Position numbers and translations under genes: made by a program. Positions 10,543 to 35,698 of a DNA stretch of 48,077 nt are shown here, one piece after another. Source of the DNA: Pseudomonadota bacterium (GTDB taxonomy: Bacteria > Pseudomonadota > Gammaproteobacteria > Ga0077536); NCBI GenBank assembly GCA_031417495.1, contig JANOVQ010000620.1, positions 1 to 48,077 on the forward strand, in the 5' to 3' direction. Under the pieces are notes generated by a model, which worked only from the letters and a program-made list of their open reading frames with translations, ran no database searches and had not been told where the DNA came from. Every line of letters starts with the position of its first letter. Within the stretch, counting starts at the first letter, position 1.

Positions 10543-11358
10543 ATGGTGAACCCGCTTCGCGAATTGCGTGCGGCGGCCGCGCAAGCCTTCGCGCTGGCCG
10601 ATCCTGCCGCTAAATGTGCGTCTGTCGCAGCGCTGCAAACTGCTGCTGCACAAGGCGCGTTGAGCCTCGATACTGCGCACATTTTTACCACCCACCAGGA
10701 ACCCGGGCGACCCGCGCGACCGCTGCTTATTCATCCGGCAAAAGTACCGCGTCGCCGACTTGGCACACCCGCTGGACGCACTGCGCTCATTCATGCGTTG
10801 GCACATATCGAGTTCAATGCGATCAATCTCGCGCTGGATGCCATCGCGCGATTTCCTGATCTGCCCGAGGCCTATTATTTTGACTGGCTCAAGGTGGCCG
10901 GAGAAGAGGCACACCATTTCGACTTATTGGTCGCACGCTTGATGGACTTCGGTCATGGCTATGGCGATTTCCCGGCGCATGATGGGTTGTGGGAAGTGGC
11001 GGCCAAGACCTGTCACGACGTGCTCGCTCGAATGGCGTTGGTCCCGCGGATTCTCGAGGCGCGTGGCTTAGATGTCACGCCGGGTCTGCAGGCGCGGCTG
11101 CAGGCAGTGGGGGATGTGGCGTCGGCGGCGATCCTGGAAATCGTCCTGCGCGATGAAATCAAGCACGTCGCAATCGGCAATCATTGGTTCACATTTTTGT
11201 GCCGGCAACGCGGCTGTGTGCCACCCGCGACGTTTCTCACGCTGTGCGAGACACATGCGATTAAGCCGCCACATCCGCCGTTCAATGTGCCGGCGCGGCG
11301 CGCCGCAGGTTTCGACGACGACGAACTCAGCGCGTGGGTGGTTCTCGCGCAAAACTGA
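10543..11358 (+). CDS. DUF455 ferritin-like domain protein
   Basis: HALAHIEFNAINLALDA, EEAHHFDLL, YGDFPAHDGLWE, LEARGLDVTP and DEIKHVAIGNHWF match my recollection of the DUF455 di-iron-like family. Start taken at ATG 10543. Confidence 0.7.
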   Translation: MVNPLRELRAAAAQAFALADPAAKCASVAALQTAAAQGALSLDTAHIFTTHQEPGRPARPLLIHPAKVPRRRLGTPAGRTALIHALAHIEFNAINLALDAIARFPDLPEAYYFDWLKVAGEEAHHFDLLVARLMDFGHGYGDFPAHDGLWEVAAKTCHDVLARMALVPRILEARGLDVTPGLQARLQAVGDVASAAILEIVLRDEIKHVAIGNHWFTFLCRQRGCVPPATFLTLCETHAIKPPHPPFNVPARRAAGFDDDELSAWVVLAQN

Positions 11359-11755
11359 GCTCGATCCGATTGCGCTCAGCATGCCGCGCGTAGTGGGCGC
11401 TGGTGGCGAGGCCCTCGACCAACAAGATGCCAAGGCCGCCAATTCGACGATTATCAGAGTCTTCTTGCAAGACCGCCCGATCAACCGACAAAAATGGATC
11501 GTACGCGGCCCCGTCATCTTCATAGATTATCTGCACGACCTCGGCGGTGGTGTGGACACTGAGGTAGATCTTGCCTTCCACGCCATCGCGGCGGCCATGG
11601 TGGACGCTGTTCAAGAATAATTCTTCCAGGACTAGCGCGAGCTTGTGGGCCAGGTGCGAGGGCAGCGCCAATTGGTTGGCATGCGCGGCGATTTGCGCGA
11701 GTAACGGGCTGAGTTCGCTTTGGATGGCGCGAAAACCCTGTTGCTCAATCTCCAT
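11327..11755 (-). CDS. RsbW/SpoIIAB-type serine kinase (anti-sigma-factor-like HATPase)
   Basis: 142 aa from ATG 11755. N-box LEELFLNSVHHG, DDGAAYDP (G1-like) and IGGLGILLV (G2-like). The size is typical of partner-switching kinases. Confidence 0.75.
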   Translation of the reverse strand: MEIEQQGFRAIQSELSPLLAQIAAHANQLALPSHLAHKLALVLEELFLNSVHHGRRDGVEGKIYLSVHTTAEVVQIIYEDDGAAYDPFLSVDRAVLQEDSDNRRIGGLGILLVEGLATSAHYARHAERNRIELSFAREPPTR

Positions 11756-11830
11756 TTTGAGAACCCTGCAATTGCGATGTCCAAACACTACTATACGTAC
11801 GTGCCATACGGGCGCTGGGAGAATACGGCC

Positions 11831-12295
11831 ATGCCGCTGCACGTTGTGACTACTTTTTGGGCGACTATTTTGTGGTTGGGGGTTACCGTAGCAATGGGCG
11901 GATACGCCTGCGCGGCGGAGACCACCGGTATTATTAAAACCCTGCAAGGGACGGTTTCGGTAGAACGCGCCGGCACCACGCTTCCGGCCCAGCTCGGGGC
12001 GTCCGTGCTGGAAGCCGATCAGATTGTCACCGGTGGTGATGGCAGTGTCGGGGTTACCTTCCAGGACAACTCGTTGCTTTCTCTTGGTCCGAATAGCCGC
12101 CTCGCTATCGCGCATTTCAATTTTGATTCGACCACCCACGATGGCAATTTCGAAACCGTCCTGACGCGTGGCAAACTCGCGGTGATCTCGGGCAAGATAG
12201 CGAAACACCAGCAAGATGCCATGAAGGTGCGGACCCCTTCGTCTATCCTCGGCGTGCGTGGCACCGAGTTCCTGGTGGAGGTCACGGCGCCATGA
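11831..12295 (+). CDS. secreted FecR-domain protein
   Basis: The signal peptide ends YACAAE. A FecR-like beta-rich domain follows (GIIKTLQGTVSVER...DQIVTGGDGSVGVTFQDNS...LGVRGTEFLVEV). The start is ambiguous among 11720, 11780 and 11831. Confidence 0.7.
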   Translation: MPLHVVTTFWATILWLGVTVAMGGYACAAETTGIIKTLQGTVSVERAGTTLPAQLGASVLEADQIVTGGDGSVGVTFQDNSLLSLGPNSRLAIAHFNFDSTTHDGNFETVLTRGKLAVISGKIAKHQQDAMKVRTPSSILGVRGTEFLVEVTAP

Positions 12296-12894
12296 AAAGT
12301 TTGTCGGCGGCGGGCCTGCTTATTTTACTGACGGGTTGTGCCAGCGTACCAGTTGAGCACGCCGCCGATCGCGTGGTGTTGCTCCCCGGCCCGGACGGTA
12401 GGCTCGGTAAGCTGGCGGTGACGTCGTCCGCGGGTGCCACCGTGCTCGATCAAGCTTATGGCATCGCGGCGGTCAGCACCGCCGGCAAGGTGGCGAATAG
12501 TCGCGGCGACGAGGCCGTCGTTCGGCGCGATTTTGCGACCACCCTCGCTGCGCTGCCGCCGCGCCCGGTATCGCATACGCTGTATTTCGAGCACGATTCG
12601 GATCGGCTCACGCCAGCGTCGGAGGTCGCGGCACAGGCGATTCTGGTCGAGATCGCGGCGCGGCCGGTCGCCGACATCATCGTGATCGGGCATACCGATA
12701 CGGTGGGCGAGCTCGTGTACAACGACCAGCTGTCACTGCAACGTGCGAATGCCGTGCGTGCGCGCCTGATTCAACTGGGCGGTGCCGCCGGTCGGATCAG
12801 CGCGGCCGGGCGCGGCGAACGCGAGCTCGCGGTGGAAACCCGAGATGACATGCATGAGCCTAGGAATCGACGGGCCGAACTGAATGTGCGTTAA
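12292..12894 (+). CDS. OmpA-family lipoprotein (peptidoglycan-binding)
   Basis: Lipobox LLTGC. The OmpA C-terminal-like motif is GHTDTVGELVYNDQLSLQRANAV...NRRAEL. Has a 4-nt overlap with the FecR gene. Confidence 0.85.
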   Translation: MKSLSAAGLLILLTGCASVPVEHAADRVVLLPGPDGRLGKLAVTSSAGATVLDQAYGIAAVSTAGKVANSRGDEAVVRRDFATTLAALPPRPVSHTLYFEHDSDRLTPASEVAAQAILVEIAARPVADIIVIGHTDTVGELVYNDQLSLQRANAVRARLIQLGGAAGRISAAGRGERELAVETRDDMHEPRNRRAELNVR

Positions 12895-12960
12895 GTCGAG
12901 GTCCCTGAAAAGTCACGTGATTGCAACCTAAGCGGTGGGCGGGCAATTGTTCGGGCGATT

Positions 12961-13090
12961 TAGCAGGTTGGTTGGGGTGCGCACAGCGAGCCCCAGCACC
13001 TAATCGCCGCTGCGTTTACGTATCTCTCCGCCCTCCGCGCGAGTTCGCTCACCCAGTGTTGGGCTTCGCAGGCTCAGCCCAACCTACCAG
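12961..13090. repeat. inverted pair of REP-like palindromic units at a convergent gene junction
   Basis: Unit B (13052..13090) contains the hairpin GTTGGGCT-N10-AGCCCAAC (13058..13083). Unit A (12961..13005, AGGTTGGTTGGGGTGCGCACAGCGAGCCCCAGCAC) resembles the reverse complement of unit B. The region has no ORF and lies between the two stop codons at 12894 and 13118. Confidence 0.5.
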
Positions 13091-13117
13091 ATGACCTGGT
13101 TTCGTCTTTCCGCGCTG

Positions 13118-15202
13118 CTACGTGGTCCGGCGCAGACACAATAACGTAATGTCGTCGGCTTGTTCGGTGTCGCCCACGAAGGAGGCGAGCGTCGCAGTCA
13201 CTGTGTGAATGAGTTCGGCGGCGGTCGCCTCGGGTGCTGCCGCGCGCAGGCAGGCATGCCAGCGCGCGGCGCCGAATAATTCACCGGTGGCGTTGTTCGC
13301 CTCGGTTACCCCGTCGGTTACCAGGCAGACCGCAGCGCCTGCCGTGAGGCTCGCATGGGAGGTCTCGTAGTGGTAGTCGTCCAACGCGCAAAGCGGAGGG
13401 CCTGAGCCGGAGAAAGGAGTCTCCAACGCGCCGTCCAGCAGGAGCGCGGGGCTGTCGTGTCCCGCATTCGACCAACGTAATGCGCCGGTATCGAGATTGA
13501 GTTCTGCCGCAAACACCGTGAGGAAGAGAAATTCCGGGTTGTCGTGGGTAAGCGCGCGATTCGCTGCGCTGAGGGCGGGCCCGGGATCCCCCTCAGCGCG
13601 CAGCACGGCGCCGCGGATCTGCGCCTTGGCCAAGGCCATGAACAATGCGCTCGGCAAGCCTTTACCGGACACATCGCCCACCAGCAGGAAGAGGCGCCGC
13701 TCGTCCAGCAGAAAAAAATCGTAGAGATCCCCGCCCACTGATTTTGCGGGCACCATGGCGCTGCCGAGAGTGAAGCGATGGTCGTGTGCGAACTCCCGTG
13801 GCTCGGGCAGCATGCCGAGCTGAATACGCCGCGCGGCATCCATCTCGCCCTGCATGCGCACCTCCGCTTCACGCGCGTGGGCCAATTCACGGTGCAAATT
13901 TCGACGTTGCGCCCGGGTCTCGGCCAACACCGCGCCCAAGGTGGATAACAGAACGAGCGCGCCGCCCATGCTGGGGTTGGCCACATCGAGCAACCAACCG
14001 CGCGCGACGAACGCCGCCATCGCGCCACCGGCGAGCGCGGCGCAGGTGGCCGCAAAACAGAGGATGGCGAGCAACGGTGGCCAGTAGATCACGCTCGCAA
14101 TCGCGCCGACACCGAGCCCCAGCAGGACCACAACTTCGAGTGTCGCGGTACGGTTGGTGCGCGTCAGCAGGCGCCCAGCCAGGGCATTTTCGAGGGCTTC
14201 AGCGTGGGCCTCCACCCCGGGCATGCGTCCCAATGGCGTCGCGACCGTATCCTGCAGGCCAAGTGCGGTGTAACCGATCAGCACGATCCGCCCGCGCAGG
14301 ATGTCGTGCTCGAGCTTGTCGCGCAGGACGTCGGCCGCCGAATAGGCCGGGCGCTCTTCCCAGCGCGAGAAATGCAGCCACCATTCGCCATTCGCGTCAG
14401 TTGGGATGCGGATACCCGCCACTTGGACCGCGCGAATACCAGCGCTGGACATTTCAACCCGCAGCGGATCGGTGCCGCCGAGATAGCGCAGGGCTTCCAC
14501 GGCGAGACCAGGGACGAGATGCCCCGCGGTGGTCCCGATCAAGGTCGGCAGGCGGCGCAGAATGCCCTGCTCGGCATCGGCGTTCAGCGCCCCGTGGCCG
14601 CGCGCGGCGTTATCCAGGACGGGCAGATTGCGCAGTAATCCGGGATAGCGGCGCACGAAATCGAGCGCGTTACCGCCGCGCTGGAGGATTAGGCTCGCCG
14701 CCGTCGTCGCCGCAGGCTGGGCCGCGGCTTCGGGGATGCCGGCCACGGCAAGGACCACCGGCGCGGCGCTGAGTGCGCGGGTCAGTTCCACGTCGCCATC
14801 AGGCAAAGTGGCGACCAGCCGCGCCGCGTCCTGTGGGTCGAGGCCAAGTTGCATTGCAAGCGCATGCGGCGCGTATTGATCTGGTTCGACAAACAAGGCA
14901 TCGATCACGATGACGGCGGGTTTGGCGGCGGCGATCTGGGCGATGAGGCCCGCCATGCGGGCACGTGGCCATGGCCATTGGCCAAAGGCCGCCAAGCTGC
15001 GTTCGTCGATTTCGACGATAACCACCGGCGCGGTGGTCCGGGCGCGCGGAAAGAGGCGCTGATAGACATCGAACCACTCGGTGCGCAGCAGGGTTTCCAA
15101 GCGGGTATCCCCCACCGCCAAAGTCACCGTGACTAAGGTTAATACGCCCAGGCCAATCAGCGCGGCGCTCCAGGGCGTGCGGGCGCGGCGCTCTTCACTC
15201 AC
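13118..15202 (-). CDS. CHASE2 sensor / PP2C (SpoIIE-type) serine phosphatase
   Basis: 694 aa. The order is an N-terminal TM helix, a roughly 330-aa periplasmic region of CHASE2 type, three TM helices, a coiled coil, then a PP2C domain with GDVSGKGLPSALFMA and VTDGVTEA. Confidence 0.8.
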   Translation of the reverse strand: MSEERRARTPWSAALIGLGVLTLVTVTLAVGDTRLETLLRTEWFDVYQRLFPRARTTAPVVIVEIDERSLAAFGQWPWPRARMAGLIAQIAAAKPAVIVIDALFVEPDQYAPHALAMQLGLDPQDAARLVATLPDGDVELTRALSAAPVVLAVAGIPEAAAQPAATTAASLILQRGGNALDFVRRYPGLLRNLPVLDNAARGHGALNADAEQGILRRLPTLIGTTAGHLVPGLAVEALRYLGGTDPLRVEMSSAGIRAVQVAGIRIPTDANGEWWLHFSRWEERPAYSAADVLRDKLEHDILRGRIVLIGYTALGLQDTVATPLGRMPGVEAHAEALENALAGRLLTRTNRTATLEVVVLLGLGVGAIASVIYWPPLLAILCFAATCAALAGGAMAAFVARGWLLDVANPSMGGALVLLSTLGAVLAETRAQRRNLHRELAHAREAEVRMQGEMDAARRIQLGMLPEPREFAHDHRFTLGSAMVPAKSVGGDLYDFFLLDERRLFLLVGDVSGKGLPSALFMALAKAQIRGAVLRAEGDPGPALSAANRALTHDNPEFLFLTVFAAELNLDTGALRWSNAGHDSPALLLDGALETPFSGSGPPLCALDDYHYETSHASLTAGAAVCLVTDGVTEANNATGELFGAARWHACLRAAAPEATAAELIHTVTATLASFVGDTEQADDITLLCLRRTT

Positions 15203-16182
15203 CTGGCGGCGAGATCGATTTCGAGACCGTCGTAGGCGGTGGTGACTTTCAGTGGCGGGCGTCCATTACGCGAGATTTCTTCGAAGCGGCGGGTCTCGGC
15301 CTCGACGCTCGCAATGCGCGTGTCATCGAACATCGGTTCGTGATGAAACAACGCGAGATGGCGGGCGCCGGCCATCTGGCACAGCTCAACCCCGGTGACA
15401 TTGCTGGAATGCCCCCAATCCTCCTTTACCGACACGGCTTCGGCGAACGAATACATCGCGTCAAAAATCACGAGATCGGCCGCGCGGAAAAAATCGACGA
15501 AGCGCTCGGTGATTTTGGGTTCATCGAGTTTGTGCTCGGAATCTGTCGAATACACCAGCGTGTGCTGTTGAGTTTCGAAGCGATAACCATAGGAATCGCC
15601 AACGTGTAATTGGCGGAGCGGGGTGACCTGCAGGCCCGCGATTGTGTGGCACCGGTCTGCGGTTAGGGTGATGAATTCGATGCGCGCGCCTAATTGATCG
15701 AACTCCACCGGAAACGAGGGCGTCCCGTGTTGGCGCCGAAAAGCAGCTTCGAGGTCGGCATGACAGCCATAAATCCGAATCTGATTACCGGGAATATAGG
15801 CGGGCGCAAACAACGGGAAGCCCATGATGTGATCCCAGTGCACATGGGACATAAACACATGGAAAATATTTGGCGTTTGCGCGCCATGCTGGGCGAGTAC
15901 CGCATTGCCAAACGGGCGGACACCGCTGCCGAGATCGCACAGCACATATTCATGCGAGTGCTGGCTTGGCGGCGTGAGCTCCAGCTCAACACAACTTGAG
16001 TGCCCGCCATAGGTTTGTGCGAGATGAAAGGGCAGGGTTAGCGCGAACGCCTGTGCTTCTTCAAGAGTGGCATATTGACGGCCTTGGGCGGCGAGTAAGG
16101 CGTGGCCAATTTTGCGCGCCACCTGCGTGGCCGTCAGCGAAACCGGCAACGAACCCCGTGTGCCCCAGAACCGCGCGCGCAT
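15199..16182 (-). CDS. MBL-fold metallo-hydrolase (paralog 1)
   Basis: Has the HVHWDH (HxHxDH) motif, N-terminal RFWGTRGS and GGHSSCVE. The 4-nt overlap with the phosphatase gene suggests translational coupling. Confidence 0.8.
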   Translation of the reverse strand: MRARFWGTRGSLPVSLTATQVARKIGHALLAAQGRQYATLEEAQAFALTLPFHLAQTYGGHSSCVELELTPPSQHSHEYVLCDLGSGVRPFGNAVLAQHGAQTPNIFHVFMSHVHWDHIMGFPLFAPAYIPGNQIRIYGCHADLEAAFRRQHGTPSFPVEFDQLGARIEFITLTADRCHTIAGLQVTPLRQLHVGDSYGYRFETQQHTLVYSTDSEHKLDEPKITERFVDFFRAADLVIFDAMYSFAEAVSVKEDWGHSSNVTGVELCQMAGARHLALFHHEPMFDDTRIASVEAETRRFEEISRNGRPPLKVTTAYDGLEIDLAAR

Positions 16183-16185
16183 CCT

Positions 16186-16554
16186 TCACGCGCTCAGCTG
16201 ACTGCCGGGAGACAGCGCCTGCAGTCCGTCGGCTACGGTGGCGTACACCGGAAATACCAGATTGAAGCGGGTGATTTCCAGCACTTCGCGCACCACGGAA
16301 TGGGGTGCTGCGACGGCGATTTCGCCGCCCACCGGCTTTGTTCGCTTGGTCGCGACCATCAACACGCGCAGCCCGGCACTGCTGATGTAGTCGAGTGCCG
16401 AGAGATCGAATAACAAGCGATCACCGCCTGTTTTGCAGTTCTCGAGATACGGCGCGAGCGCAGCGTTGAAGGTGGCGGCTGCTTCGTGATCGATGCGCCC
16501 GAGCGGTTTGAGCACGATCACGTCGGCACGGCGTTCGAACGACAGTTCCATCAA
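16186..16554 (-). CDS. STAS-domain anti-sigma-factor antagonist (SpoIIAA/RsbV-like)
   Basis: 122 aa. DLSALDYISSAGLRVL carries the conserved phosphorylatable Ser context. It ends 3 nt before the MBL start. Confidence 0.8.
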   Translation of the reverse strand: MMELSFERRADVIVLKPLGRIDHEAAATFNAALAPYLENCKTGGDRLLFDLSALDYISSAGLRVLMVATKRTKPVGGEIAVAAPHSVVREVLEITRFNLVFPVYATVADGLQALSPGSQLSA

Positions 16555-16639
16555 TGATCCTCTAGCGAATGACGGCCGGCGGGCAGTAATTTGGAGGCCG
16601 ATTCTAGGCGCTGCAGAGGACTCACGGCAAATACGCCTC

Positions 16640-21264: not shown

Positions 21265-22227
21265 TCAGGCGGCCTTCCATAGCGACTGAAGCGAGCACGG
21301 TAGCGGTTGGCGGCGCAGCACTTCGGCAATGCCAAATGCCGCGCGCTCCGCGGTATCGCGACATACCGGGTGCGCATACACACTGCCTTGCGGAGACTTA
21401 AAACAACTGACCAGCGGTTGGCTCGCGCGTTGCCTGCCACGCTGGAGGACGACGCCGATCTCGCCATTGTCCAGGCGGACAAAAATTCCAGGTGGAAAGA
21501 CCCCGAGTTCGTTGATGAAATCCGCGGCCAGGGACGCATCAATCTGCGCGCCACGTTGTAGAAAGATCTCGCGCAAAGCCTGCTGCGCGTGAATTCCATC
21601 GCGATAGTGACGCGGCAATACCATCGCTGCATACACATCGGCGAGCGCGACCAACCGGGCGGGGCGACACAGAGCCTGGCCGCGTAGTCCGTGCGGATAG
21701 CCGGTGCCATCGGGCCGCTCGTGATGTTGCGTGACGATGGTTAACCACAGCGCATCGGTGACCCCTGCGGCTTCCAATAAGGCGGCGCTTTTGAGTGGAT
21801 GTTCGTGGGCAATGGACAGTTGCGCAGGGGACAGTGCGCCAGCCTGGTTCGCGGCAGTCTCGTGCAGCGCAAGCATGCCGAGATTGCAGGTCAACGCGGC
21901 CGCGACGGTGGTCAGGCGGGTCGCTTCGTCGAAACCGCAGCGCTCGCCCAGTAGCGCACAGATTGCCCCCACCATGACCGGATGTACCTGCGCATAGGAC
22001 ACCGTCTCATCGAGGAGCAGGCTGTACAGCACGGCATCCGGCGTGCGTTGCAGGAGTTCCCCAAACTCCCGAGTAAAGTCGCGAATCTGGGCTGGCAGTG
22101 TGCTCGCAGGGTGCGTGAAATCCTGCGTGAGAAGCTGCCAAATCCGGGTACGCAGTACGGCCAATGTCTCCAACGCGCTGCCGTCGGCGCGCCGGTGGGC
22201 GTTGGTCTCAGTTTTCTCACCCTGCAT
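21265..22227 (-). CDS. HD-GYP-domain protein (HD replaced by HE)
   Basis: TQHHERPDGTGYPHGL is the HHExxDGxGYP signature. The upstream LHDIGK position reads LALHETAAN. Confidence 0.75.
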   Translation of the reverse strand: MQGEKTETNAHRRADGSALETLAVLRTRIWQLLTQDFTHPASTLPAQIRDFTREFGELLQRTPDAVLYSLLLDETVSYAQVHPVMVGAICALLGERCGFDEATRLTTVAAALTCNLGMLALHETAANQAGALSPAQLSIAHEHPLKSAALLEAAGVTDALWLTIVTQHHERPDGTGYPHGLRGQALCRPARLVALADVYAAMVLPRHYRDGIHAQQALREIFLQRGAQIDASLAADFINELGVFPPGIFVRLDNGEIGVVLQRGRQRASQPLVSCFKSPQGSVYAHPVCRDTAERAAFGIAEVLRRQPLPCSLQSLWKAA

Positions 22228-28435: not shown

Positions 28436-29212
28436 TCAAGCGACGACACGCGTCCCGAGCAGCAACTCTCGTTGCCGCATTCGCGTCAGGATCTCCAGGC
28501 CTCCCTCAATGACTGCCGTCGGATCCTCCTGACCAAGGTCGCCAGCGATTTGCGTGAGAATCGCGCGTGCAGTCTTCTCGCCTGAATCACGCACAGCAAC
28601 AAAGAGCTGGCGTGAAATTGCGTTGAGGTCGAGCACCCCATAGTGATGCGCGCGATCCCGGAACGCGACTAGATGGGTTTCTTTCGCCGGCGGCACCGCG
28701 GGTTTGTAGTCGACCGTAATTGCGTGCACTGGAAAGCGATAGGTCTCCAGGGTGTGGATGGGATTGACGACAATCTCTCCGTCCAGCAAAGCACCGAGTG
28801 GATCAATGCCAGCCATGGGCAACAGCCGTTCATCGGTGGCGATCAGGTTCTCCAGCCAATCGAAATGTGCGAGTTCGTAGAGGTAGGGTGGATCGTCAGC
28901 TGGCCGTAACCGGCGGGTGAGATAGGCGAGAAACTCACCCGGCAACCTGGCGAAGACCGGAGTCGTCGCTTGGTGTTTAAGTAAGTAATCCCGGACCAGG
29001 GTGTGCCATTGCGTGGCCGGCAGTACGTCTTTGACCCTCGGAAAGTTATTGGCGAGGAAACCTTCGATGTTGTGGAGCACGGCATGGCGGTAGACCGCGA
29101 CCCCCGCTGCGGGCAAACCTGGTGGGGCCGGAGCATGCTCAGGATCCCGCAGATGCTGCGCAAAAGCGCGTTGCGCGCGGATAAATGCGGGCTCGTTGGC
29201 GGGCGCTTTCAT
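28436..29212 (-). CDS. DUF2063 RiPP maturase partner protein (HvfC/BufC/MbnC-like)
   Basis: The N-terminal FIRAQRAFAQHLRDPE...VYRHAVLHNIEGFLANNFP is the DUF2063 pattern. Has a 4-nt overlap with the DUF692 gene. Confidence 0.8.
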   Translation of the reverse strand: MKAPANEPAFIRAQRAFAQHLRDPEHAPAPPGLPAAGVAVYRHAVLHNIEGFLANNFPRVKDVLPATQWHTLVRDYLLKHQATTPVFARLPGEFLAYLTRRLRPADDPPYLYELAHFDWLENLIATDERLLPMAGIDPLGALLDGEIVVNPIHTLETYRFPVHAITVDYKPAVPPAKETHLVAFRDRAHHYGVLDLNAISRQLFVAVRDSGEKTARAILTQIAGDLGQEDPTAVIEGGLEILTRMRQRELLLGTRVVA

Positions 29213-30060
29213 CTTTCTGCAACAGCCTGCAACAGGGGCCGTTGCGCCGCTTGTAAGCGCACGATCTGTGCAACTTCGGGGAGGATTTCTGCCAGTTCGG
29301 GAATATTCTCATCGCGCTCAAGAAGGGTGGGGAAAGTGCCCAGCTGTGCGTATGCGAAGCGCAGCAACTCCCACACGGGATCGATCACGGCTGCACCGTG
29401 AGTATCGATAATCAATCCAGAGTCAGTGCGCAGATGGCCCGCGATGTGCGCATAGGCGATGCGGGTGGCGGGGAGCTGTGCCAGAAAATCACGCGGGTTG
29501 TAGCCGTGATTCACGCTATTCACATAAACGTTGTTGATATCGAGCAAGAGATCGCAATCGGCCTCCTGCAGCACAGCGTTGATGAAGTCGATTTCGGACA
29601 TTTCCTGCAATGGCACGCAGTAGTAGGAGGCATTTTCGACTGCAATGCGGCGCTCCAGGATATCCTGCACCAGCCGGATTCGCGTGGCGAGATGGCTGAC
29701 GGCCTCGGCGGTGAAGGGCATTGGCAGGAGTTCGTAGAGGAGCCCGGACTCGCCACAAAAAGACAGATGATCCCCGTATACACGGATTTGAAACCGCTCG
29801 AGAAACTGCTTCACTTGGCGAACATAGGCGACATCAATGGGATCTGGTCCACCCAAATTCAGGAGCAGGCCGTGGCTCACCAGTGGAAAGTTGTGCGCGA
29901 TGCGCGCGAAGGCTTCGCCCAGGCGGCCACCAGCGCCTAACCAGTTTTCGGGGGCAATTTCGAGGAAGCTGATGGAGGCGGGGATTGAGATCTGCAGCGG
30001 GCCCAGATGAGCCCGCCGCAGACCGAGGCCAGCGCCATGGATCGCATGAGATTGCGCCAT
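29209..30060 (-). CDS. DUF692 / MNIO-family RiPP maturase (HvfB/BufB/MbnB-like)
   Basis: GLGLRRAHL, FLEIAPENW, SHGLLLNLGG, GDHLSF, LLPMPFT, AVENASYY, LLLDINNVYVNSVNHG and HIAGH make up the full set of DUF692 TIM-barrel blocks. Confidence 0.88.
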   Translation of the reverse strand: MAQSHAIHGAGLGLRRAHLGPLQISIPASISFLEIAPENWLGAGGRLGEAFARIAHNFPLVSHGLLLNLGGPDPIDVAYVRQVKQFLERFQIRVYGDHLSFCGESGLLYELLPMPFTAEAVSHLATRIRLVQDILERRIAVENASYYCVPLQEMSEIDFINAVLQEADCDLLLDINNVYVNSVNHGYNPRDFLAQLPATRIAYAHIAGHLRTDSGLIIDTHGAAVIDPVWELLRFAYAQLGTFPTLLERDENIPELAEILPEVAQIVRLQAAQRPLLQAVAER

Positions 30061-30096
30061 GGTTACCGGCAGGCAGTCGGGAACTGCCGAACCCTA

Positions 30097-30405
30097 TTAC
30101 TTCTGGAGATGGGGCATCGAGCAGCTGGCGCCGGCGAAAGTGCCACACACGGCCGGATCCTTGACGCCGGTCGCGAGTTTGCCACCAGAATATGCGCCCT
30201 TGCTGTCACCGCCGTAGGTAAAACCCGTCTCGTCATTGATCATGACTTTATTGCCCTGCATGTCGACGGATTCGGTCGCGACAGTCACTCCATCACCGAA
30301 ATCGACCATTTGGAACGGGTTGTCAGCATTTGCCACACTCGACAGCGCCAACACCACCGATGAGCCAATCGCCATAGCGATGGGCTTCAGATTATTTTTC
30401 TTCAT
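30097..30405 (-). CDS. Sec-signal RiPP precursor candidate (HvfA-like N-terminus, atypical two-Cys core)
   Basis: 102 aa. Signal peptide MKKNNLKPIAMAIGSSVVLALSSVANA|DNPF. The C-terminus is DPAVCGTFAGASCSMPHLQK. Strong RBS GAGGAGGAAGG. The gene lies 36 nt upstream of the MNIO gene. Confidence 0.75.
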   Translation of the reverse strand: MKKNNLKPIAMAIGSSVVLALSSVANADNPFQMVDFGDGVTVATESVDMQGNKVMINDETGFTYGGDSKGAYSGGKLATGVKDPAVCGTFAGASCSMPHLQK

Positions 30406-34194: not shown

Positions 34195-35103
34195 TCACAG
34201 AGGGACGACGCTGCCCTCCCGTGCGACCTGAATCTGCAGGTGGGAACCCCGGGTGCTCGCGATTTGCTCGCATTCGCGATGAATGGCCGCCACGCGCGCG
34301 TCGTCGTAGGTTGGATCATGGTGATAGAGGTAGAGCGACTTCACCTCGGCGTCGATCGCAAAATTGACCACGTCCACGTAACAGGAGTGGCCCCAGCCGC
34401 GCTTCTTCGCGTAATCCTCCGGGCTGTATTGTGCGTCGTGGATCAGGAAGTCGGCACCTCGAATTGCCGACAATTCGGCCGCGCGCTCTTCGTTTTGCAT
34501 GCGCGTGATCATGCGATGTTCGTCGGCACTGAACTCGTCGGCGCGCCGCGCGATCGACGAGCGCAGAAAGTCTATTTCGTTATCCGACATATAGACGATA
34601 ACCTTGCCAGCGACTTCGATGCGGTAGCCGTAAGTCACGCCTGGATGATGCACGTTGTGGTAAGTGAGGGTAAATGGACCATGCTGGATCTGTCCGGCGA
34701 GCGCATCCACGTACTCAATCGCGGCCATCCAGGTTTCAATTTCAACGGGAAAGTAGGGCGACTTCATCTGGTTCGACAGCCGCTGCTCGATATCCTTGGC
34801 CGTTTGACCGGGTCCGAAGAAGCGAATTTTCCAGTTCGGCGAGAAGGCCGGTTGAAAAAACGGCAGGCCGCAAATGTGATCCCAGTGGTAGTGGGTAAAA
34901 ACGATCAAGGTTTCCGGCATCTTGTGGGCTGCCATCAACTGCTCACCCAGTGGGATGATGCCAGTCCCGCCATCACAGACTAGCAGATGTTCGCCAGCGC
35001 GGATTTCGACGCAAGATGTATTGCCGCCCACGCCGAGATGGCTCTGGTGAGGCGCGGCATAGGAGCCGCGCACGCCCCAGAAGCGAAGATAGGGCTCGGT
35101 CAC
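34195..35103 (-). CDS. MBL-fold metallo-hydrolase (paralog 2)
   Basis: RFWGVRGS, GGNTSCVE, CDGGTG and THYHWDHICGLPFF, the same blocks as the 15199..16182 protein. Has a 4-nt overlap with the receiver gene. Confidence 0.8.
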   Translation of the reverse strand: MTEPYLRFWGVRGSYAAPHQSHLGVGGNTSCVEIRAGEHLLVCDGGTGIIPLGEQLMAAHKMPETLIVFTHYHWDHICGLPFFQPAFSPNWKIRFFGPGQTAKDIEQRLSNQMKSPYFPVEIETWMAAIEYVDALAGQIQHGPFTLTYHNVHHPGVTYGYRIEVAGKVIVYMSDNEIDFLRSSIARRADEFSADEHRMITRMQNEERAAELSAIRGADFLIHDAQYSPEDYAKKRGWGHSCYVDVVNFAIDAEVKSLYLYHHDPTYDDARVAAIHRECEQIASTRGSHLQIQVAREGSVVPL

Positions 35104-35507
35104 GGGCGTGGCTGCTCCGCGCTGGTGTAGCGACCGATGAGCTCAACGATATGGCGGGTGGTCATCGGTTTGGCGACGAATTCCACGACCCCGAGTTCGC
35201 GCGCTGTCGCGCGATCCTGCGCGTAATCCTTCGAACTGATCATGATTGTCTGGGTCTCTTGATGTAACGGTTGACGCCGGAGCTCCTGCAAGAAGGTGAG
35301 GCCATCCTTTGCCGGCATGATGATATCCAGAAACAGGAGCGCAGGCTGATGGGTTTCAAGAAATGGCGCAGCGGCTTCGGCCGACGCGAAAGTGCGCAAA
35401 TCGACTGCGAGATCCGCCAACACTTTTTCGAAAAACACCCGCACAGCGGAACTGTCGTCCACCACGACGACGAGAGGAGCTGAAGAATTTTGTGCTGTGT
35501 GTTCCAT
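35100..35507 (-). CDS. stand-alone response-regulator receiver (CheY-like)
   Basis: From ATG 35507: VVVVDDS, LFLDIIMPAKDG (phospho-acceptor Asp context), and a late IMISSKD...AKP. Confidence 0.8.
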   Translation of the reverse strand: MEHTAQNSSAPLVVVVDDSSAVRVFFEKVLADLAVDLRTFASAEAAAPFLETHQPALLFLDIIMPAKDGLTFLQELRRQPLHQETQTIMISSKDYAQDRATARELGVVEFVAKPMTTRHIVELIGRYTSAEQPRP

Positions 35508-35698
35508 GATGATCTGTAAAGGCGGCGCAATCGGGATTGAGGCAGCCGGCGCCACTATAAGTCAAGGTGCCGGTAAGTGGCGAGCGTGATCACGGGAAGC
35601 GGCCACCTCGCGCACCCGGACCCGGGGCATCGCGTCCTAGGTCGAAGTGCGGCGCGTCCTTTGACGGGCGCAGGCAAACGACTAAAATGGTTCGCGCT

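Follow-up and report, generated by a model that had tools for sequence, protein, structure and literature searches.

Organization of the locus

We analyzed a stretch of 48,077 nucleotides (nt) of DNA (the window; GenBank assembly GCA_031417495.1, contig JANOVQ010000620.1, positions 1 to 48,077) from a bacterium classified within the Pseudomonadota (Gammaproteobacteria; Ga0077536). The window encodes a six-gene cassette in which the kinase, phosphatase and STAS protein of a partner switch occur with a metallo-beta-lactamase (MBL)-fold hydrolase, a secreted FecR protein and an OmpA-type lipoprotein. We propose that this is a partner switch without a sigma factor, in which an envelope sensor would set the phosphorylation state of the STAS protein and the STAS protein would in turn control the MBL hydrolase. 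The genes and associated features are listed below (aa, amino acids).

11327..11755, minus strand: RsbW/SpoIIAB-like serine kinase, 142 aa (Pfam HATPase_c_2, 6.9e-19); probable STAS kinase
11756..11830: divergent intergenic region between the kinase gene and the FecR-OmpA operon, read from the sequence
11831..12295, plus strand: secreted single-domain FecR protein, 154 aa (Pfam FecR, 1e-12); signal peptide ending ...ACA/AE
12292..12894, plus strand: OmpA/Pal-type peptidoglycan-binding lipoprotein, 200 aa (Pfam OmpA, 1.2e-15); lipobox LLTGC with Ala at +2
12895..13117: convergent spacer between the operon ends; terminator-like hairpin at 13086-13100 on the plus strand, a weak consensus match
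13118..15202, minus strand: CHASE2-PP2C membrane phosphatase, 694 aa (Pfam CHASE2, 5.6e-52, and SpoIIE/PP2C, 5.7e-43)
15199..16182, minus strand: cytoplasmic MBL-fold phosphodiesterase-type hydrolase, 327 aa (Pfam Lactamase_B_2, 1.6e-18); proposed regulated output
16186..16554, minus strand: single-domain STAS protein, 122 aa (Pfam STAS, PF01740, 6.6e-17); proposed phospho-switch subunit of the MBL enzyme
16601..16630, minus strand: candidate sigma-70-like promoter of the STAS-MBL-PP2C operon (TTGCCG, 18-nt spacer, TAGAAT), from a consensus scan

An earlier note on this DNA, made from the sequence alone, had placed six genes with these domains at these positions, and the open reading frame (ORF) positions and Pfam matches agree with it. 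The operon order that it gave (STAS, MBL, CHASE2-PP2C) is also what we read: the STAS and MBL genes are separated by a 3-nt gap and share a reading frame, and the start of the PP2C gene overlaps the MBL gene by 4 nt. The kinase gene is divergent from the FecR gene, and the FecR and OmpA genes overlap by 4 nt (ATGA) and converge on the phosphatase operon across a spacer of 223 nt, again as had been described. The distance of about 75 bp between the kinase and FecR genes holds for the FecR start listed above, which is ambiguous (an upstream ATG at 11777 is possible and would leave only 21 bp). For the STAS gene, the ATG at 16551 is a more likely start than the TTG at 16554.

Conservation of the cassette

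Gene neighborhoods were surveyed with the MBL alone as the anchor (alignment A1). Matches came from more than 590 species-representative genomes; the top 80 loci were taken further, and the counts refer to the 79 that are non-redundant (individual loci carry L-numbers). Denominators are the loci with room for the gene in question: 76 for STAS, 68 for CHASE2 and PP2C, and 59 for FecR, OmpA and the kinase (at least 5 kb downstream).

The STAS gene lies directly upstream of the MBL gene, on the same strand, in 72/76 loci. CHASE2 follows the MBL gene in 62/68 loci and PP2C in 63/68, FecR and OmpA are each present in 51/59, and the kinase is present in 42/59 (43/59 with a hidden Markov model, HMM). 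Five genes occur jointly in 50 of the 59 loci and the full six in 38. Cultured carriers include Nevskia soli DSM 19509, Dechloromonas denitrificans ATCC BAA-841 and D. hortensis DSM 15637, and metagenome-assembled genomes (MAGs) among the loci are labeled Nevskiales, Burkholderiales, Rhodocyclales, Usitatibacter/Casimicrobiaceae, Rokubacteria/Methylomirabilota and Kordiimonadales, among others. The loci span the Gamma-, Beta- and Alphaproteobacteria and the Methylomirabilota. A search with the CHASE2-PP2C protein recovered six close relatives, and all of those that are not cut by a contig end hold the entire cassette. Two loci (L005 and L011) have the whole kinase-FecR-OmpA block in the opposite orientation, still adjoining the remaining genes.

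The MBL is by far the best conserved component (57-72% identity across loci). Identity is 44-72% for FecR, 36-63% for STAS, 38-60% for OmpA, 40-54% for PP2C, 33-49% for CHASE2 and 29-63% for the kinase, the least conserved member. No seventh gene family was found in more than 8 of the 80 loci by all-versus-all clustering of flanking ORFs (the clustering merged STAS, kinase and PP2C via shadow ORFs and was used solely for this result). Flanking synteny is maintained in near relatives, and DUF455 and SDR neighbors are common to the close relatives only.

Chance adjacency of unrelated genes has only its prior probability in its favor. Order and orientation are the same in ~50/59 species-level loci from several classes and phyla, and the junctions in the window are coupled. 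Conservation on this scale, over dozens of species, goes far beyond what chance would give. The co-occurrence check that the earlier note had suggested was thus carried out, and it finds the six genes co-conserved across species-level loci; chance adjacency is excluded by the neighborhood analysis, and the probability that we leave to it is negligible. The cassette is almost certainly a functional unit.

Two observations concern individual loci. The closest relatives of the window (L001, L088 and several others, with 88-95% protein identity) are lake and groundwater MAGs labeled 'Klebsiella pneumoniae' or 'Enterobacteriaceae'; these labels are wrong, given the gene content (pilMNOPQ, Nevskiales-like relatives) and a G+C content of ~60%. 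At L013 (548-2323) the MBL gene directly adjoins a DUF455 gene, and none of STAS, PP2C, OmpA, FecR and the kinase is present, which looks like a deletion of the remaining cassette or a MAG assembly artefact.

The partner-switching proteins

The cassette encodes the three proteins of an RsbU/RsbV/RsbW-type module: a serine kinase of the HATPase_c_2 family (PF13581), a single-domain STAS protein with a phosphorylatable Ser and a PP2C phosphatase (PF07228) with intact metal-binding aspartates. Lacking is the sigma factor of such a module. No sigma-70-family protein was found among the screened ORFs of the 48-kb window, and none is suggested by the clustering of flanking genes, in which no seventh family recurs. 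The description of the locus as a sigma-less partner switch, put forward in the earlier note, is therefore borne out, as the catalytic or acceptor motifs of all three components are conserved and neither a sigma factor nor any seventh gene is co-conserved with them.

The STAS protein passes the NCBIfam model TIGR00377 of the anti-sigma-factor-antagonist superfamily (71 bits versus a cut-off of 53). Its acceptor motif is DYISSAGLR, with Ser58 and Ser59 as candidate sites. Both serines, in the ISSAG context that the earlier note had pointed out, are found in at least 95% of 84 homologs. The kinase has weak NCBIfam matches to RsbA, RsbW and SpoIIAB, all far under the cut-offs. Its N-box (EE..N...HG) and G2 motif are conserved in 55 homologs, and the G1 motif (DDGAA) is partly canonical.

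The phosphatase has a first transmembrane segment (aa 10-33), a periplasmic CHASE2 domain (aa 26-364; nt 14111-15127) and a transmembrane bundle (~aa 351-400), followed in the cytoplasm by a helical linker and the PP2C/SpoIIE domain (aa 500-692; nt 13127-13705). This layout is backed by a hydropathy scan. The PP2C motifs GGDLYDF, GDVSGKG, NAGH, TDG and DD are conserved in 73 homologs. The best NCBIfam match of the protein is SiaA, at 64 bits versus a cut-off of 700.

Eleven loci in which the kinase was not found beside the cassette belong to one beta-proteobacterial clade (L019, L020, L022, L024, L028, L029, L037, L040, L047, L067 and L068). These retain STAS-MBL-CHASE2/PP2C-OmpA-FecR, with unrelated and differing genes next to FecR, and a two-round HMM found no RsbW-like kinase next to FecR in these 11 loci. 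At the kinase position, L019 encodes a GGDEF protein of the membrane together with a class III cyclase, and L022 has a class III cyclase gene.

We considered a conserved cyclase or GGDEF partner. Such genes are only sporadic (the GGDEF protein and class III cyclase of L019, and an extra CHASE2-cyclase in L036), and for this reason they were not counted in the system. In L036 (10813-15059; a MAG labeled Rokubacteria), a gene for a CHASE2-class III cyclase of 705 aa lies between the MBL and CHASE2-PP2C genes of an otherwise complete cassette, so that one operon encodes two CHASE2 receptors with different outputs.

The MBL hydrolase

The hydrolase lacks a signal peptide and has the metal site HxHxDH (H113, H115, D117, H118). 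All metal ligands (H113, H115, D117, H118, H193, D214, H258 and H280/H281) are invariant in 25 homologs. A helical insert at ~aa 15-58 is specific to the family. An AlphaFold2 model (pLDDT 83, pTM 0.81) was compared with known structures using Foldseek, and the top matches are YhfI, RNase Z, BA1088, PhnP, ELAC1, PqqB and PDE1, with Apyc1 at a lower rank (PDE1 4ojv, E 1.5e-9; Apyc1 7u2r, E 2.4e-8; RNase Z 1y44, TM-score 0.65-0.77). Nearly all of these matches are phosphodiesterases.

RNase Z/ElaC, Bacillus subtilis YhfI, PhnP, class II PDE1 and phage Apyc1 share with the cassette MBL the fold and the metal site (HxHxDH...H...D...H). However, the MBL is only 12-19% identical to them, it scores far short of the cut-off with every equivalog model, and the helical insert at aa 15-58 is an addition, which is also present in the STAS-fused forms inspected. 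No solved close homolog was found, only remote RNase Z-type matches with E 1e-5 or weaker. An identity as tRNase Z/ElaC was rejected: TIGR02651 scores 54 bits versus a cut-off of 293, FDAM stands in the place of HEAT, and an insertion for the exosite was not seen. The GHSS loop of the MBL aligns with the 'HST' loop of RNase Z. The Apyc1 domain PF23023 was not detected on the window MBL; it is recorded on most close homologs and marked weak on one fused homolog.

Based on the fold matches, we conclude that the MBL is a predicted cytoplasmic phosphodiesterase of the RNase Z/YhfI/PhnP/PDE1/Apyc1 clade. The leading substrate candidates are a cyclic nucleotide and an RNA or oligonucleotide end. On balance, the substrate is probably a nucleotide phosphodiester of some kind; that it is specifically a cyclic nucleotide is doubtful at present.

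Probable coupling of the STAS protein to the hydrolase

The A1 profile was searched against 1.84 billion 50%-identity representatives (P-numbers denote representative clusters). The MBL family is large, with 7,747 clusters at E <=0.001 and 1,410 at E <=1e-30. The best 150 representatives comprise 99 stand-alone proteins or fragments, 9 two-domain fusions with STAS and ~42 long MBL-STAS-Pkinase proteins. The two-domain fusions occur in both orders, STAS-MBL (P0122-P0124) and MBL-STAS (P0128). One STAS-MBL fusion protein is present on more than 140 contigs, and the MBL-STAS order is found in NCBI records, for example from Candidatus Desulfobacula maris. Read-through of a STAS-then-MBL gene pair could not produce this reverse order, and the fusions are real rather than artefacts. 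The acceptor motif is retained in the two-domain fusions (FMTSAGLR, YTSSMGLR, YISSAGLR). Most of the long MBL-STAS-Pkinase proteins are extended by AAA_16 and TPR domains to 1,500-1,640 aa. These giants have a STAND-like architecture (P0147, P0152, P0162 and ~40 further clusters), and shorter MBL-STAS-Pkinase forms are ~705-720 aa long.

In Candidatus Desulfobacula maris (L173/L174, 1-11171), the MBL-STAS fusion gene is directly followed by a gene for a GAF-HD_5 protein. Genes for a CHASE2-guanylate cyclase and a FecR-TPR protein lie ~5 kb upstream of the fusion, past four genes of sugar metabolism. The fusion may thus belong to a cyclic-nucleotide context, or the proximity may be coincidental.

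Loci with altered gene content separate the MBL from the phosphatase. In L014 the MBL gene is met by a convergent operon for kinase and STAS, and PP2C is lacking; in L085 the order is kinase, STAS, STAS, MBL, with no PP2C nearby; and in L081 STAS, MBL and kinase are accompanied by a PP2C with a different N-terminal sensor. The MBL thus tracks STAS rather than the phosphatase. A further locus, L061, has STAS, MBL, CHASE2-PP2C and kinase without FecR and OmpA. We take the Rosetta-stone fusions as evidence that STAS and this MBL would act as one functional unit, with an interchangeable type of kinase, and judging from these sequences direct coupling of the two is very likely.

The earlier note had left the MBL as either the regulated output or a co-factor. 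Given the near-universal adjacency to STAS, the fusions in both orders and the persistence of MBL and STAS in the absence of CHASE2-PP2C (L014, L085), a role as output is favored. One alternative is an RsbQ-like arrangement. It has a published precedent in the RsbP-RsbQ-RsbV-RsbW-sigma B energy branch of B. subtilis, where, as in the cassette, a PP2C and a hydrolase transcribed with it are found together with a STAS antagonist and an HATPase_c_2 kinase, and where the alpha/beta hydrolase RsbQ serves the PAS domain of RsbP (PMC3183031). By analogy, the MBL would act upstream and make or destroy a small molecule needed by the PP2C or the kinase, as part of the input. The 4-nt overlap of the MBL and PP2C genes, and their adjacency in ~62/68 loci, fit this. 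However, RsbQ follows its sensor domain whatever the output, whereas the MBL follows STAS whatever the sensor or kinase (L014, L085, L081 and the STAS and Hanks-kinase fusions), and the cytoplasmic part of the PP2C shows no domain for ligand binding ahead of its catalytic domain. The B. subtilis operon also includes its sigma factor output, while the cassette has none. As it is STAS rather than the sensor that the MBL follows, an RsbQ-like role is disfavored and we regard it as improbable. We likewise reject the locus as an RsbQ-RsbP hydrolase-sensor pair, as the hydrolase has the MBL fold, accompanies STAS also where CHASE2-PP2C is absent and occurs in fusions with STAS.

A second alternative is a classical partner switch with an unlinked target, in which the kinase is an anti-sigma factor or other inhibitor, the dephosphorylated STAS protein frees the target and the MBL is a passenger or accessory. 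Most studied members of HATPase_c_2 are anti-sigma factors, the weak matches of the kinase are to RsbA, RsbW and SpoIIAB, and the STAS protein passes an anti-sigma-factor-antagonist model. Unlinked targets exist for other partner switches, such as the Rsb system of Chlamydia. Against this, there is no sigma factor among the screened ORFs of the window and none that recurs in the 80 loci; the MBL is the best conserved member, the opposite of what is expected for a passenger; and STAS is fused to the MBL, not to this type of kinase, which is the most dispensable member. We consider an unlinked target unlikely.

The MBL-STAS-Pkinase-AAA_16-TPR giants also raise a role in conflict or defense, with the MBL as a nuclease-type toxin restrained by the STAS/kinase/phosphatase module. 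They are numerous and long, their kinase domains resemble PD-T4-6-type defense kinases (PADLOC), and RNase Z-like folds can cut RNA. The six window proteins, however, have no PADLOC match beyond generic OmpA/MotB similarity, and the cassette lies in housekeeping surroundings (ValS, PepA, LptFG, SpeDE, HtpX) that show synteny in near relatives and in which no mobile-element genes were seen. Its input is an envelope sensor rather than a phage sensor. A defense function, suggested only by the STAND-like giants, is very unlikely.

The window encodes a paralog of the cassette MBL (34195-35103, minus strand, 302 aa; 32% identity, E 7e-42). The paralog has the N-terminal RFWGxRGS motif in common with it but no helical insert at aa 15-58, and its gene overlaps by 4 nt the gene of a receiver-only response regulator (35100-35555, minus strand, 151 aa). 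The pair is kept in 79/79 related loci, and we know of no described function for it. With one MBL linked to STAS and its paralog linked to a receiver domain, this branch of MBLs appears to have been repeatedly slaved to a single-domain phospho-switch, as expected of a regulated output enzyme. The insert is found in the stand-alone STAS-linked MBLs and the fused forms inspected, and it could be a docking element for STAS; this candidate role is inference only.

Envelope components

The FecR protein consists of a signal peptide and a FecR domain alone. Its closest NCBIfam matches are the Leptospira FecR-domain lipoproteins LipL45 and Lsa33 and not the FecR anti-sigma factor. A FecI/FecR-type extracytoplasmic function (ECF) anti-sigma system was rejected, as the 154-aa protein has no further domains and the FecR equivalog model scores 18 bits versus a cut-off of 385. 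Neither an ECF sigma factor nor a TonB receptor was found near the FecR gene, in the window ORFs or in the clustering of the loci. In the OmpA protein, the N-terminal ~95 aa form a conserved domain of unknown fold, and the peptidoglycan-binding motif (TD..G....N..LS..RA) is conserved in 63 homologs. The protein scores 57-64 bits with the NCBIfam models of YiaD, PA1041 and YfiB, below their cut-offs.

The earlier note had suggested that FecR and OmpA form the periplasmic input of CHASE2, and the survey supports this: the FecR/OmpA pair is present in 51/54 CHASE2-positive loci and in 0/5 CHASE2-negative loci (hypergeometric p ~1e-5). The CHASE2 domain is flanked by hydrophobic segments, with the gene for the secreted FecR protein adjacent, as in other CHASE2 receptors with FecR accessories. 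FecR genes adjoin CHASE2 genes with other output domains (PMC5192318, PMC9239204), and CHASE2 receptors have been found to depend on an envelope accessory protein, the outer-membrane partner NsrA (PMC13001267). We think it likely that FecR and OmpA are accessories of CHASE2. At L018 (3392-5597), two tandem FecR-OmpA pairs lie downstream of a single CHASE2-PP2C gene.

Proposed mechanism

From the gene content, motifs, co-conservation, STAS-MBL fusions and fold class of the MBL, we infer the contacts between the proteins, the direction of regulation and the substrate as follows. The secreted FecR protein and the OmpA lipoprotein (tethered to the outer membrane and peptidoglycan) would modulate the periplasmic CHASE2 domain of the inner-membrane PP2C. 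The phosphatase would remove, and the RsbW-like kinase would add, a phosphate on Ser58/59 of STAS. In one phospho-state, STAS would bind and gate the co-translated MBL, which would hydrolyze most likely a nucleotide phosphodiester (a cyclic nucleotide or an RNA end). For this whole chain, from envelope sensor via STAS phosphorylation to an MBL phosphodiesterase with no sigma factor involved, we estimate a probability of roughly 0.55.

Several findings weigh against this mechanism. The kinase is poorly conserved and was not found beside the cassette in 11/59 loci; thus, the phosphorylation half of the switch is not always linked. The canonical serine is replaced (LNVAGL) in many of the MBL-STAS-Pkinase giants, so that STAS-MBL coupling does not always depend on that phosphosite. 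The neighborhoods of the STAS-MBL fusions are not uniform: around one fusion, neither a PP2C nor a kinase is encoded within 8 kb, and another is followed by a GAF-HD_5 protein. The MBL stands alone in three loci (L013, L015, L078). The window MBL falls short of the Apyc1 and cyclic-nucleotide phosphodiesterase models (NF041851, 56 bits versus a cut-off of 400). Finally, the surveyed loci are species representatives yet phylogenetically related, and many come from MAGs with unreliable labels.

Relation to described systems

Our literature search turned up no paper connecting STAS to an MBL hydrolase or describing this wiring, in keeping with the statement of the earlier note that it could not be assigned to a described system. 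The modules are familiar (partner switching by PP2C, STAS and kinase, and the CHASE2-FecR neighborhood). We found no description of the combination, above all of a STAS-coupled MBL phosphodiesterase as output, and it appears to be new.

The closest parallel in logic may be SiaABCD of Pseudomonas aeruginosa (PMC7647112, PMC8457831), in which the membrane PP2C SiaA and the small kinase SiaB set the phosphorylation of SiaC with no sigma factor, and SiaC in one state binds and activates the co-encoded nucleotide-signaling enzyme SiaD. The proposed cassette would share this logic. It differs in having an MBL hydrolase rather than a GGDEF cyclase as output, a canonical STAS protein (PF01740) with Ser rather than SiaC as the switch, and CHASE2 with FecR/OmpA as the sensor. 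The low score with the SiaA model given above indicates that the cassette PP2C is not a SiaA ortholog.

On the input side, the cassette resembles YfiB/YfiR/YfiN of P. aeruginosa in architecture. In YfiBNR, an OmpA/Pal-like peptidoglycan-binding lipoprotein and a soluble periplasmic protein control an inner-membrane enzyme (PMC2837407, PMC4887326). The cassette has a FecR domain instead of YfiR and CHASE2-PP2C instead of PAS-GGDEF, and its OmpA protein, although YfiB is among its top NCBIfam models, reaches only 57 bits with that model (cut-off 128). The sequestration logic of YfiBNR is an analogy only.

CHASE2 genes next to FecR genes are known from the Burkholderia 'BiofilmReg' locus (LysM-FecR with a CHASE2 histidine kinase; PMC5192318) and from Campylobacterota, where a CHASE2 adenylate cyclase clusters with a phosphodiesterase, FecR and TPR (PMC9239204). 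In Sinorhizobium, CHASE2 of CyaD1/D2/K depends on the outer-membrane partner NsrA (PMC13001267). The outputs of these systems are a histidine kinase or cyclases and their accessories are LysM-FecR, FecR-TPR or a beta-barrel, without a STAS/kinase/PP2C module, whereas the accessories in the cassette are a minimal FecR protein and an OmpA lipoprotein.

Other sigma-less STAS switches are HptB-HsbR-HsbA(-HsbD/FlgM), Vibrio SypE-SypA, Bordetella BtrUVW and Chlamydia RsbU/V/W (reviewed in PMC8256260), in which a non-sigma partner is under the control of the STAS phospho-state, as we propose for the MBL. HsbA acts on a diguanylate cyclase, and Chlamydia RsbU, like the cassette phosphatase, has a periplasmic sensor domain. 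As differences, HsbR and SypE have the kinase and phosphatase fused to a receiver domain, and none of the four is known to include an MBL hydrolase, CHASE2 sensing or FecR/OmpA proteins.

Partner switching is mostly presented as a means of freeing sigma factors, and only a handful of non-sigma outputs are known. The cassette points to an enzymatic output, an MBL phosphodiesterase, from a large enzyme family in which the same branch appears to be slaved to STAS, receiver domains and Hanks kinases. A tentative extension is that STAS-gated MBL phosphodiesterases are an unrecognized and widespread class of outputs, with STAS free, fused or within Hanks-kinase/STAND giants, that STAS would switch on or off directly, that could degrade second-messenger nucleotides or particular RNA ends and that in proteobacteria would be wired to CHASE2/FecR/OmpA. 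We know of no signal for most CHASE2 domains. In the cassette, CHASE2 would be coupled to two defined periplasmic partners and, if true, this would be the first tractable handle on CHASE2 sensing. Since cultured strains carry the cassette, direct tests are possible for the CHASE2 signal as well as for the MBL substrate.

Other features of the window

A sigma-70-like promoter for the STAS operon is suggestive only. The consensus scan that gave the candidate listed above is accompanied by an 8-mer related to it, TATAATCG, upstream of STAS in 13/72 loci. Promoters of alternative sigma factors were rejected, as sigma-54, ECF and sigma-28 patterns are not enriched relative to shuffles in the 72 upstream regions. 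The same type of scan found one sigma-70-like hexamer pair in the kinase-FecR intergenic region (minus strand, 11783-11754).

The genes that flank the cassette are ordinary: DUF455 (next to the kinase gene in the window), SDR, HtpX, SpeD/SpeE, LptF/LptFG, PepA and ValS, with pyruvate carboxylase, ArgS, PriA, PBP1a and PilM farther out. A gene ~5 kb from the cassette (21265-22227, minus strand) encodes a 320-aa HD_5 (HD-GYP-related) protein in which no sensor domain was recognized; flanking ORF clustering showed no recurrence of this family beside the cassette in the other loci among the 80. Between 18592 and 20272 (minus strand), a spermidine synthase gene lies between two separate genes of the AdoMet-decarboxylase family (138 and 132 aa). 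Finally, at 28436-30405 (minus strand) we identified genes of the MbnB/TglH/ChrH family (DUF692) and of DUF2063, and ahead of them a 102-aa ORF whose N-terminus resembles a signal peptide, which is the layout of a putative DUF692/DUF2063 cluster for a ribosomally synthesized and post-translationally modified peptide or a copper-related function.

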